Below are positions 32,377 through 35,166 of a stretch of DNA of 58,582 nucleotides, one piece after another. A program made the position numbers and the translations under genes. Numbering within the stretch: position 1 is the stretch's first letter; every line of letters starts with the position of its first letter. The notes under the pieces were generated by a model, which saw only the letters and a list, made by a program, of their open reading frames with translations, ran no database searches and had not been told where the DNA came from. Origin of the DNA: Candidatus Aminicenantes bacterium (GTDB taxonomy: Bacteria; Acidobacteriota; Aminicenantia; Aminicenantales; UBA4085); the NCBI GenBank assembly GCA_022866045.1, contig JALHTW010000230.1, positions 1 to 58,582 of the forward strand, read 5' to 3'.

Positions 32377-33822
32377 TCAGCCCCGGCCTGGGATCCTCAA
32401 CCGCTGTCCAATCCGGATCAAATAGGGATTCTTGATTCCGTTCAGCTTGACGATTGCCTGGACCGAAGTGCGGTATTTGGCCGCGATCTGGGACAAGGTT
32501 TCTCCTGCCCGGACCACGTGCACGGAAGGTTCGGCAGGGACGAATTTAGGGAGGCTGCTGATGATCTGGAGGGTCTTTTCACCATAACCGACCGGCACGC
32601 GGAGCGAATATTCGTGGTCGGGCGTAGAATCTTGCCGCAGTTCAGGGTTGAGATAGGACAGCTCCGAGCTTTCGAGCCCGAGCGCCACGGAGAGTGTCGC
32701 CAGCTTGGTCGGATGGTTGATAGTGATCGTCTCGAATTTGAGGGGCGGGTACGGCGTCGGCAGAGTGAAGCCGTATTTCTCGGGGTTCTTGATGATGAGC
32801 ACGGTCCCGATAAACCGGGGGACGAAACGCGCCGTTTCATAAGGAAGCCTTCTAAAGAGGTCCCAGAAGTTGTCCAGATAATTGACCTTCTGGGTGTTGA
32901 TGACGTTCTGGACGCGCATTTCGCCGCAGTTGTAGGCCGCCAGGGCGGTCGTCCAATCGCCGAAGAAGGAATGGAGCTCGTCGAGATATTTGATGGCTGC
33001 TTGCGTCGCCTTGTAGGGGTCCATGCGCTCGTCCACGAAACGGTCCTGGGTCAGGCCGTACCGGTAACCCGTGGAGCGCATGAATTGCCACATGCCCATT
33101 GCCCGGGCCCGGGACAGCGCCCGGGCCTGATACCAGCTTTCGATGACCGGCAGCCAGCACAATTCTTCGGGGAGGCCGGCTTTCCTGAGTTCCTCCTGGA
33201 TCCAGTCCTTGTAAAGTCCTGCTCTCTGGTAGGCGGCTTCGAAAGTCTTCCGCTCGCTGCCCTTGAACAGTTCGATCTCCCGGCGGACAAACTCGTTCTC
33301 GACCAGGGGGATGGATTTTCCATTGCCCTTGATCGGGTTGCGGCCTGAGGCGTTGATTTCCAGGATGCGCTGGGCGATCAGAAGCCGCAGGTCGTTCTTT
33401 TCCTGAAGGAGGGGAGAATCCGCTGGCAGATCGACTTTCAAAATGATCTTATAGGCATCATCCAGTGCCTTGAGAGCCGCATTCATGTCGCCGCGTTCCC
33501 AGGCGAGCTTCGCCTCCTGATAGACCATGAGGGCTTCCTCGAGCAGGGCAGAGGGTTCGTCTTTTTCCAAGTTGGCGGCTTTCTGCTGGAGGGCCGTTTC
33601 TTCTTCTACGGCTTTTTTCTCTTCAGGGGGGATGATAGTCTTGGCTTCAGCGGCTCTATTCTCCTGAGGCTGCGTCGTCTGGGGAGGGGTGGATTGCGGC
33701 GCCGGCTGTTCGAGGACGGTTTTTTGGGGAGTTTGCGTCGGCTTGGGGCCGGATGAACAGCCCCAAAGGAAGACGGCCAGGAGCGCACATATGAGGATCC
33801 GGCCTTTTGTAGTTGTCTGCAT
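32377..33822 (-). CDS. mltD: Membrane-bound lytic murein transglycosylase D-like lipoprotein with LysM domain
   Basis: Lipobox LWG-C; SLT motifs [24 protein letters not shown]; C-terminal Lys[14 protein letters not shown]. Confidence 0.85.
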
Positions 33823-33836
33823 GATTAAAAGAGATA

Positions 33837-33865
33837 CTTATACCATGCGGGAAAGGATGAGTCAA
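33837..33865 (-). promoter_or_regulatory. sigma70-type promoter for the mltD-like gene
   Basis: TTGACT-17 nt-TATAAG on minus strand with TGn. Confidence 0.55.
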
Positions 33866-33877
33866 CCATGTCAAAAA

Positions 33878-34185
33878 GGGTCGCGTCTACACTTTCCACT
33901 TTTTTGTCTCGACTGGGAATATCGGACTCCGTTCGCGTTGAGTCTTATAGAATCTTATTAAACTCAAAAGGCGAGTCGAGTGCCCAGAGGCTTTTTATCA
34001 TGTCACGTTGAGAGGAAACCAAAAACAACGGATTGTTCTCGCCGACCGCGATAGGTCCGTCCTTCGTCAGGAAGATTTTTCGACAGATGAAAGAAAATCT
34101 TGCCTAGAATTACATCCTGCAAGGCGCTGTCCAGGAGATCGAAAAATCCCTCTCTGAGAAAAAGTGGAAAGTGTAGACGCGACCC
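33878..34185 (+). mobile_element. Internally deleted Y1/RAYT-type transposase element with perfect 27-bp terminal inverted repeats
   Basis: GGGTCGCGTCTACACTTTCCACTTTTT (33878-33904) and its exact reverse complement (34159-34185) enclose a transposase fragment. Confidence 0.8.
33969..34157 (+). pseudogene. N-terminal fragment of an IS200-like/REP-associated tyrosine transposase
   Basis: Start-less frame RRVECPEAFYHVTLRGNQKQRIVLADRDR resembles the Y1 N-terminal pattern R.E.PGA.YHV..RGN..Q.IF.D..DR; HUH and catalytic Tyr regions absent. Confidence 0.75.
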
Positions 34186-34197
34186 CGTGTTTAGAGC

Positions 34198-35166
34198 TTA
34201 TTTCCGGTGCCAGCGCCAGGCGGTCTCGATGATGGTCTCGATTTCGGAGTTCCGGAGCTTCCAGCCGAGCAGGCGCTCGGCCTTGTCTTTGGAGGCGAGG
34301 AGCACCGGCACATCGCCTTCCCGCTTGGGCATTTCCCGAACCGGGACCTTCTTTCCGGTGATCTTTTCAGCCCGGGCGATGACCTCCTTGACGGAATATC
34401 CCCGGTTAGTTCCCAGATTGATGAATTCGCTCCGCGGGGAGGCCATGAGCTTCTGGAGGGCCAGGACATGGGCATTCGCCAGGTCCGTGACATGGATATA
34501 ATCCCGAATGGCTGTCCCGTCCGGCGTGGGGAAGTCCGTGCCGAATATGTCCAGGTTTTCCTTTCTCCCGAGAACAGAGAGAAGAATATTGGGTATGAGG
34601 TGGGTTTCCGGGTCGTGGCATTCGCCCATCTCGCCGTCCGGATCTGCGCCCGAGGCGTTGAAATACCGGAGGGAGATGAATTTGAGCTTGTAGGCCCGGT
34701 CATAGTCCTGGAGGATCCGTTCCACAAAGAATTTCGTCTGGCCGTAGGGATTGAAGGGGTCGAGCGGATGGTCCTCCGGGATCGGGATCTGCTTCGGGAT
34801 GCCGTACACGGCTGCGCTTGAGGAAAAAATGAAATTCCTGACCCCGGCTTCAAGCATTTCATCGAGAAGGTTCAGGCTCGATGTCAGGTTCTGGGTGTAA
34901 TATTTCCGGGGATGGATATAGGATTCGCTGACCTGGATGAGGGACGCGAAATGGAGAACGGCGGCGATATTTTGCGATTTGAACGCGCTCCGAATATCGT
35001 CTTTTACCTCGAGGTCGCCGACGATGAGCTCCGCGTCCCGGACGAATTCTCGCCTTCCGGTCGATAAATTATCAAAAACAACGACGTCAAAACCCTGTTT
35101 TCGAAGCTCTTTGACGGTGTGAGAGCCGATATACCCCGCCCCGCCAGCCACCAGGATCTTGCTCAT
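34198..35166 (-). CDS. galE: UDP-glucose 4-epimerase
   Basis: GGAGYIGSH, FSSSAAVYG, YGQTK, LRYFNA, RDYIHV. Confidence 0.93.
   Translation of the reverse strand: MSKILVAGGAGYIGSHTVKELRKQGFDVVVFDNLSTGRREFVRDAELIVGDLEVKDDIRSAFKSQNIAAVLHFASLIQVSESYIHPRKYYTQNLTSSLNLLDEMLEAGVRNFIFSSSAAVYGIPKQIPIPEDHPLDPFNPYGQTKFFVERILQDYDRAYKLKFISLRYFNASGADPDGEMGECHDPETHLIPNILLSVLGRKENLDIFGTDFPTPDGTAIRDYIHVTDLANAHVLALQKLMASPRSEFINLGTNRGYSVKEVIARAEKITGKKVPVREMPKREGDVPVLLASKDKAERLLGWKLRNSEIETIIETAWRWHRK

Follow-up and report, generated by a model that had tools for sequence, protein, structure and literature searches.

A probable internally deleted TIRtron copy in the mltD-galE spacer of a Candidatus Aminicenantes genome

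RAYT-like genes with long inverted repeats were named TIRtrons, and their enzymes TIRYTs, by Di Nocera, De Gregorio and Rocco (2013; PMC3733652). According to the passages of that paper on these elements, some of the terminal inverted repeats (TIRs) carry the motif GGGGWSAS, the end families are moderately abundant as singles, dimers and clusters, and the Acidobacteria group is the most sharply defined TIRtron group. In the classification of Quentin et al. (2018; PMC6006769), 20 of 26 TIRYTs fell into subclass 2.1 of TnpA-Y1, which Table 1 of that paper characterizes by the motifs NH[YF]H, FQ and Y[IV]HLNP and by a C-terminal Bac_DnaA_C or helix-turn-helix tail. The passages on this subclass report no REP-like sequences near its genes and leave the link with TIRYTs to be confirmed. 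The subclass corresponds to Group 1 of Bertels et al. (2017; PMC5581495), whose relevant passages name Groups 1 and 6 as the RAYT groups most like insertion sequences. The TIRtron is a known but little-studied kind of element, the name appearing in two distinct works of the literature searched, and the passages of the literature that treat it describe no mobility experiment. A search of the literature on Y1/HUH transposases with TIRs or MITEs, and on repeats and transposases of Aminicenantes, found nothing nearer than the TIRtron.

The window (the whole stretch of DNA analysed, 58.6 kb) carries an mltD-like gene (32377-33822, minus strand; murein transglycosylase D match, E 9e-47, below the model's cut-off) and galE (34198-35166, minus strand; GalE match, 429 bits, cut-off 262). 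The intergenic region between them, 33823-34197, holds a 308-bp unit bounded by a perfect 27-nt inverted repeat. A repeat search of the window placed the two arms at 33878-33904 and 34159-34185, 100% complementary and with 254 nt between them. With up to three mismatches allowed, the 27-mer occurred at these two sites only in the window, and no match arose in 100 shuffles. No direct repeats of 3 nt or more were found flanking the unit. The frame at 33951-34157 has no start codon ahead of the stretch RRVECPEAFYHVTLRGNQKQRIVLADRDR. An earlier reading made from the letters alone (the sequence-only reading) had reported the perfect 27-bp repeat, the 308-bp unit, the start-less frame and the lack of a target duplication, and all of these were found again.

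Across the 365 contigs of the same assembly (G000), the 27-mer gave eight ends, which formed four inward-facing pairs; the reversed-pattern control gave none. Besides the window unit, the pairs were C225:3534-3830 (297 bp), which over 308 columns has 92.5% identity with the window unit; C341:6791-7054 (264 bp), where these ends surround an interior of unrelated sequence; and C359:6627-7692 (1066 bp), with an intact transposase ORF between the ends. The sequence-only reading had expected the ends to recur around a full-length transposase and around further short copies, and the genome contained one pair of the first kind and, besides the window unit, two of the second. The ORF of C359 encodes 311 aa; its start lies 75 nt inward of one end and its stop 4 nt from the other. 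The 1066-bp element has no room for a second gene. It was the sole homologue in G000 at E<=1e-20 in a protein search.

The C359 protein matched Pfam Y1_Tnp (E 2.8e-12, 47.2 bits, cut-off 23) and scored 76.7 bits against the NCBIfam REP-associated tyrosine transposase (REP_Tyr_transpos), under the cut-off of 80. Residues 251-294 gave weak helix-turn-helix matches, the best of them to Bac_DnaA_C (17.8 bits, cut-off 31.5). In an alignment of 26 homologues from the same order, N59, H62, Q99, Y119, N123 and P124 were invariant and H60 nearly so; the conserved residues form the HUH motif NHYH, the FQ motif and the tyrosine motif YIHLNP. The profile of the 26 homologues, compared with solved structures, matched TnpA-REP at positions 51-143 (4er8, E 1.5e-3) and DnaA domain IV at positions 242-312 (8btg, E 3.5e-4; 3pvp, E 1.3e-3). 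An AlphaFold model of the protein (pLDDT 89.3, pTM 0.71) had 4er8_A as its best Foldseek match (E 7.6e-7, TM 0.76 by target, rmsd 2.3 over 150 columns), and the IS608 and ISDra2 transposases came next (2xqc, 2vju and others). The protein is therefore modelled as a Y1 HUH nuclease domain like TnpA-REP, followed by a C-terminal helix-turn-helix like DnaA domain IV.

On these features the element is best classified as a TIRtron with a TIRYT of TnpA-Y1 subclass 2.1 (Group 1 of Bertels et al.), and it is not new in kind. As in TIRtrons, there is a Y1 HUH gene, with the HUH motif (H60/H62) and Y119 in C359; the window unit holds only its debris. The C359 gene and the window unit are both framed by 27-nt perfect inverted ends in place of GTAG REP hairpins, and the ends are also dispersed as a repeat family (13 of 151 genomes, 42 pairs), all of which agrees with the TIRtron passages. 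The end here reads (G)GGGTCGC, which matches GGGGWSAS at 7 of 8 positions, the motif being stated for some TIRs only; the ends of relatives in the order read GGGGTCAA or GGGGTCAG. The passages of PMC3733652 on TIR families describe neither an internal-deletion copy with coding debris nor empty sites. With subclass 2.1, as its passages define it, the C359 protein shares its length, the NHYH, FQ and YIHLNP motifs, the tail like DnaA domain IV and the lack of a classical REP beside the gene; the difference is that the link of gene, ends and gene-less pairs is explicit here. The picture of the class is left unchanged.

Three better-known classes were considered and rejected, since the element lacks their defining characters. 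The REPIN-RAYT system, as treated in the relevant passages of Bertels and Rainey (2011; PMC3116915), is alike in its single-copy Y1 gene, in non-autonomous inverted doublets able to fold and in the lack of a target duplication. However, a canonical REP is a short imperfect palindrome with a GTAG foot, whereas the 27-mer is not palindromic; GTAG is present inside the end, on the other strand. REPINs number hundreds, whereas G000 has 8 ends and relatives no more than about 35; the gene locus here is non-syntenic, and the REP_Tyr_transpos score stays under its cut-off. Elements of the IS200/IS605 type (IS608, ISDra2) share the HUH/Y1 fold and the lack of a target duplication, but according to Table 1 of PMC6006769 they have subterminal hairpins in direct orientation, no TIRs and Y---Q, whereas inverted ends and YIHLNP are found here. 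The small size and inverted ends would fit a DDE-derived MITE, but the target-site duplication required of that class was present at 0 of 42 pairs. The sequence-only reading had described the unit as a miniaturised RAYT/Y1 element; more precisely, its class is TIRtron/TIRYT rather than canonical REP/RAYT.

The window unit could be aligned with the two extremities of the full element. In BLASTN against C359, positions 1-187 of the unit corresponded to 1-210 of the full element (72%) and positions 189-308 to 946-1066 (88%), and the 27-nt ends were identical at 27 of 27 positions. In an alignment with four full-length elements, a large deletion was seen to fuse codon ~36, out of frame, with the last ~30 codons. 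The fragment aligned at 24 of 31 positions with residues 6-36 of the C359 protein (BLASTP, E 4e-14), and it matched the profile of 26 homologues with an hhalign probability of 98% (E 6e-14). A Pfam search of the fragment by itself gave 0 families at E<=10; the profile and the full copy were used for comparison because the fragment is too short for Pfam. The proposal of the sequence-only reading that the frame is the N-terminus of a Y1 transposase was borne out by the Y1_Tnp protein of the same genome and by the profile, and the Pfam match that it had expected for the fragment did not appear. The window unit is thus probably a gene-less, internally deleted, non-autonomous copy of a TIRtron. Since the identity in the leader and N-terminal part is only 72%, the resident C359 copy is not the parent of this mini-element, which stems from another, diverged element that had these ends.

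From left to right, the unit comprises an outer left extension of 8 nt (33870..33877, plus strand), recognized by flank comparison of copies as a degenerate outer part of the inverted end; the left 27-nt terminal inverted repeat (33878..33904, plus), located by the repeat and 27-mer searches; and a leader remnant, reaching from the end to the start codon in the alignment with the full-length elements of G000, G008, G014 and G018 (33905..33971, plus). In the same alignment, a conserved leader motif TG(A/G)GAATAT lies at 33914-33922, and the ATG region has been lost through a 24-nt deletion at 33971/33972. The N-terminal coding remnant, transposase residues 6-36 by BLASTP and hhalign, follows at 33972..34064 (plus). 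At the junction of the internal deletion (34064..34066, plus), about 735 bp of the full element are gone by BLASTN. The C-terminal coding remnant, which aligns with the helix-turn-helix tail of the full-length elements (34066..34158, plus), is out of frame with the N-terminal one and reads TAG at 34105-34107 in place of the TGG of the full copy. The right 27-nt terminal inverted repeat (34159..34185, minus; same searches as the left) is followed by an outer right extension CGTGTTT (34186..34192, minus), recognized from flank comparison and the pair consensus, CGTCTT. The motif TG(A/G)GAATAT may be an extended -10 box, and the matching -35 box would then lie inside the end. A -35 box placed in an element end is typical of transposase autoregulation.

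Further loci with these ends were found elsewhere in the order. The 27-mer (up to three mismatches) was detected in 13 of 151 genomes and 0 times in the controls, with up to 35 ends per genome; the genomes were G000, 6 of the 26 others in the window's family and all six of family f9. The exact 22-mer occurred in 82 stretches of a species-representative collection, and viral contigs gave 0 exact matches to it. By record title, 57 of the 80 loci listed were from Candidatus Aminicenantes and 1 from Aminicenantales; 20 lay on one MAG titled uncultured Eubacteriales, and one each on short MAG contigs of Desulfuromonas sp. and Geopsychrobacter sp. On these last two (L095:58-104 and L158:189-235), the identical 22-mer is present as a 47-nt hairpin, which points to either cross-phylum transfer or a binning error.

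All loci together yielded 42 distinct inward-facing pairs of 47-1066 bp: 6 at 47-50 nt, which are tight hairpins, 13 at 78-94 nt, 19 at 103-441 nt and 4 at 887-1066 nt. The end-bearing genomes contain mostly gene-less pairs of 47-150 bp. The abundance of such REPIN-like pairs in related genomes, together with a window unit made of the two joined ends of a full element, agrees with the idea of the sequence-only reading that the unit is a deletion intermediate between the two. When the 42 interiors were compared, only a few proved related. That the ~88-bp pairs descend from the full element was considered and not established, since most of the spacers are unrelated.

Directly before the 27-mer stood G in 37 of 42 pairs (the window copy has A), and directly after it stood C in 38 of 42. 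Further out, the next five bases tend towards AAGAC on the left, with a left consensus AAGACG, and towards GTCTT on the right, and the ends of other subfamilies have the same AAGA(N)GGGGTC start. Because conserved bases run about 6 nt past the 27-mer across the family, the real end is about 33 nt long, with a degenerate outer part. The copies of the mini-element agree with this. The outer left 8 nt are common to the window copy, C225, L175 and L177, and nearly so to L176, and the flanks beyond differ; on contigs of other copies, the window sequence begins at 33870-33873. In all, the copies share about 7-8 nt beyond the 27-mer on the left and 3-7 nt on the right. Given these shared bases and the consensus, the mobile unit, with its imperfect outer bases, is placed at ~33870-34192 and is larger than the 308 bp bounded by the 27-mer. 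Direct repeats of 3 nt or more were absent from all 42 pairs at offsets 0-5, and at offsets 6-10 they were seen in 0-2 of 42 pairs, compared with 0.5-1.1 in shuffled pairings.

In the order, gene and ends were found together. Homologues of the C359 protein at E<=1e-20 were present in 93 of 151 genomes (protein search), and each of the 27 homologue loci examined was framed by an inverted repeat of 19-65 nt situated directly outside the gene. Most of these repeats begin with GGGGTCA(A/G), and some are palindromic dimers. The closest homologues were those of G014 (71% identity), G008 (70%) and G018 (66%). The gene ends of G008 and G018 are 0-2 of 27 bases off the 27-mer, with proteins 66-70% identical, and the ends of the resident gene in G014 share the outer ~15 nt and differ from the abundant 27-mer in the inner half. 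This closest homologue (71%; L048) is flanked, on the gene's strand, by 60-nt palindromic dimers at 1362-1421 and 2437-2496 and not by single ends, and in their inner half these dimers depart from the abundant 27-mer of that genome.

A full-length cognate (>=66% identity) was detected in 4 of the 13 end-bearing genomes (G000, G008, G014 and G018), each with one gene copy, and G001 gave a partial match of 146 residues. In the other eight (G003, G007, G032, G039, G045, G050, G054 and G058; assemblies 69-93% complete), the search found no cognate, and G050, G054 and G058, the richest in ends (22-35 each), had none even at E<=1e-3. Assembly gaps may explain the missing cognates.

The ends of the window unit were 27/27 identical to those of the full element, against 72% and 88% in the adjoining segments. 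Among five copies of the mini-element, 2 of the 54 end columns and 20 of the 254 interior columns were variable (Fisher p 0.39). The comparison with the full element and that across genera thus support selection on the ends, and the comparison within the young subfamily of minis does not; for the perfect ends of the window copy, youth is as good an explanation as selection. The sequence-only reading had offered recent activity in trans or selection on the ends: the spread of one deletion product speaks for the former, and selection did not show within the minis. As a whole, that reading is supported by the sequence comparisons as essentially right.

The deletion product occurred in several places. 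Three of the five copies (L175, L176 and L177) are on metagenome contigs that were found with a 28-base junction probe; the common junction is thus by construction, which does not hold for the 24-nt deletion and the differing flanks. All five copies (these, the window unit and C225) carry both deletions and are 95.6-98.0% identical in pairs. They lie in three flank contexts: that of the window, that of the C225 locus (also in L177 and on the right side of L175) and that of L176. Likeness between the window, C225 and L176 copies stops 7-8 nt to the left and 3-7 nt to the right of the 27-mer. Contigs of four metagenome runs provide further left flanks, as loose ends, that join at 33870-33873. 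The L175 mini has the right flank of the C225 locus and another left flank, which suggests recombination between copies.

Sites without the element were found for both the mini and the full form. In three related genera (G008, G014 and G007), the mltD and galE genes are adjacent with no unit in a spacer of 40-110 nt, the state that the sequence-only reading had proposed to look for in relatives. In metagenome run X2, a 535-nt contig joins 33869 to 34195 through 54 other letters, and its galE side differs from the window at 2 of 432 positions; a contig of run X5 departs from the window sequence at 33869. In run X6, the left flank and the left end are joined on one contig, and the right end and galE on a second; both borders of the unit are crossed, and therefore the site is occupied in a second data set. 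For the full element, both flanks of C359 are adjacent in G003, 146 nt apart, and the element is absent. Neither empty site is clean: 54 letters replace the window unit, and the G003 spacer was not kept in G000 at C359. A search for a clean within-genus empty site (L085 and L115 against G007) found none, as the spacers had differences beyond the element itself. Among the flanks of the four full-length loci (G000, G008, G014 and G018), no similarity was seen, with 0 tblastx pairs at E<=1e-5.

In the unit-free allele of X2 and X5, the 49 nt on the left depart from the window at 8 positions, even though galE is almost the same. Spacer may have been lost when the unit was inserted, or else the spacer may be a hot spot of recombination. 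At the C359 locus (L006:1499-1501; G000 C359:6625-6627), an ABC-2-type permease ORF upstream stops at a TAG that consists of two flank bases and the first G of the end; in the element-free G003, the same permease gene ends in TGA and is followed by a GC-rich hairpin.

On these comparisons, from which mobility is inferred, the deletion product was probably moved in trans by the intact enzyme or by one closely related to it. The enzyme would act on single-stranded DNA, in which the paired ends would form a stem (a panhandle or a hairpin). The HUH domain would cut at the base of the stem on both sides, and therefore no target duplication would arise. Shorter copies would fold more readily and hence outnumber the full element, and the endpoint would be the REPIN-like pairs of 47-150 bp. 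The single strand of 33866-34197 is predicted to fold to a panhandle of -67.4 kcal/mol (z -6.6 against shuffles), a fold that is expected from a 27-bp stem alone and is not independent evidence. The locus provides comparative evidence for movement of a TIRtron as one unit between its inverted ends, because one deletion product occurs in several contexts, empty sites exist for the mini and the full form, and target duplications are lacking. The 311-aa enzyme and its putative substrate of ~320 bp make a compact test pair.

It is also conceivable, but unlikely, that the ends are REP-like hairpins under selection that serve the host, for example as transcript-end structures, that the TIRYT is a domesticated nuclease maintaining them, and that the window unit is a dead relic of a gene duplicate that never transposed as a unit. 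The gene is single-copy in G000, G008, G014 and G018, as is described for RAYTs in the relevant passages of PMC5581495; all four units in G000 are intergenic, two of them within 12 nt of stop codons; some ends are tight hairpins of 47-50 nt; and the single strand folds better than shuffles, which is trivial given the stem. However, the same deletion product, with coding debris that a host hairpin would not need, occurs in at least three unrelated contexts. Full-length loci are non-syntenic in four genera, the C359 site is empty in G003, and the distribution of the ends is patchy (13 of 151 genomes of the order), all of which speaks against this account.

Recombination or segmental duplication between existing ends, in place of transposition, could also have produced the copies, and the mixed flanks of L175, which look like an exchange between copies, and the lack of a clean empty site would suit it. 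Yet the window, C225 and L176 copies lose their likeness within 3-8 nt of either end, and an ectopic duplication would not end three times at the same bases, which makes this account very improbable. That another transposase (e.g., DDE) moves the units with the Y1 gene as mere cargo is harder still to believe, since, for all the end-rich genomes without a Y1 cognate (G050, G054 and G058) and the unrelated ORFs inside the pairs L032 (887 bp) and L112 (1053 bp), no pair of 42 has a target duplication, the 1066-bp element is too small for another gene, diverged ends still lie just outside the gene in 27 of 27 homologue loci, and tblastn and ORF inspection found no other transposase between the ends in the loci examined.

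Beyond movement in trans by a TIRYT, a wider and more tentative possibility is that TIRtrons are live single-strand transposons, that a whole reduction series has been kept in these genomes, and that the ends are recognized in two parts. The series would run from the 1.07-kb autonomous element through ~300-bp units with debris and pairs of 80-150 bp to hairpins of 47-50 nt, and, if true, it would show the birth of REPIN-like hairpin repeats. The outer ~16 nt, which are kept even where the inner half differs, would be recognized by the HUH domain, and the inner half, as duplex, by the tail like DnaA domain IV. Of the 9 positions of the DnaA-box consensus given in a passage of PMC6006769, 7 agree with bases 15-23 of the 27-mer (CTTTCCACT). 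This likeness counts as no more than a lead: a random 27-mer scores 7 of 9 in about one try in four, and the match has no fixed place in other subfamilies.

The unit lies 12 nt past the galE stop and upstream of the likely mltD promoter; the insertion is probably neutral, with an effect on mltD or galE that is probably nil. A promoter scan of 33700-34300 gave 0 sites by the rule of the scan, and an Rfam search of the four G000 loci gave 0 matches at E<=0.1. By eye, TTGACT, 17 nt and TATAAG can be seen upstream of the mltD-like gene on the minus strand (33837-33865), an arrangement that fails the scan rule at the last base. It is 12 nt from the left end, and the insertion seems to leave the mltD core promoter intact.

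The 264-bp pair of C341 (6791-7054; L005:1264-1527) has 2 mismatches in its left end, and its interior gave short matches of 79-92% in G009, G017, G006 and G014, three of these four being without the 27-mer. This interior seems to be borrowed from another repeat family. Inside the pairs L032:641-1527 (887 bp) and L112:470-1522 (1053 bp) are unrelated ORFs: one has a signal-peptide-like start, and the other, of 123 aa, resembles a HicB-type antitoxin by eye. These interiors may be cargo, or each pair may consist of two independent solo ends. A 219-bp unit (L086) matches both ends of the L112 unit. At L038:1501-1650, a 56-nt tandem duplication, made up of 9 flank bases, the left end and part of the spacer, has produced two left ends and one right end.
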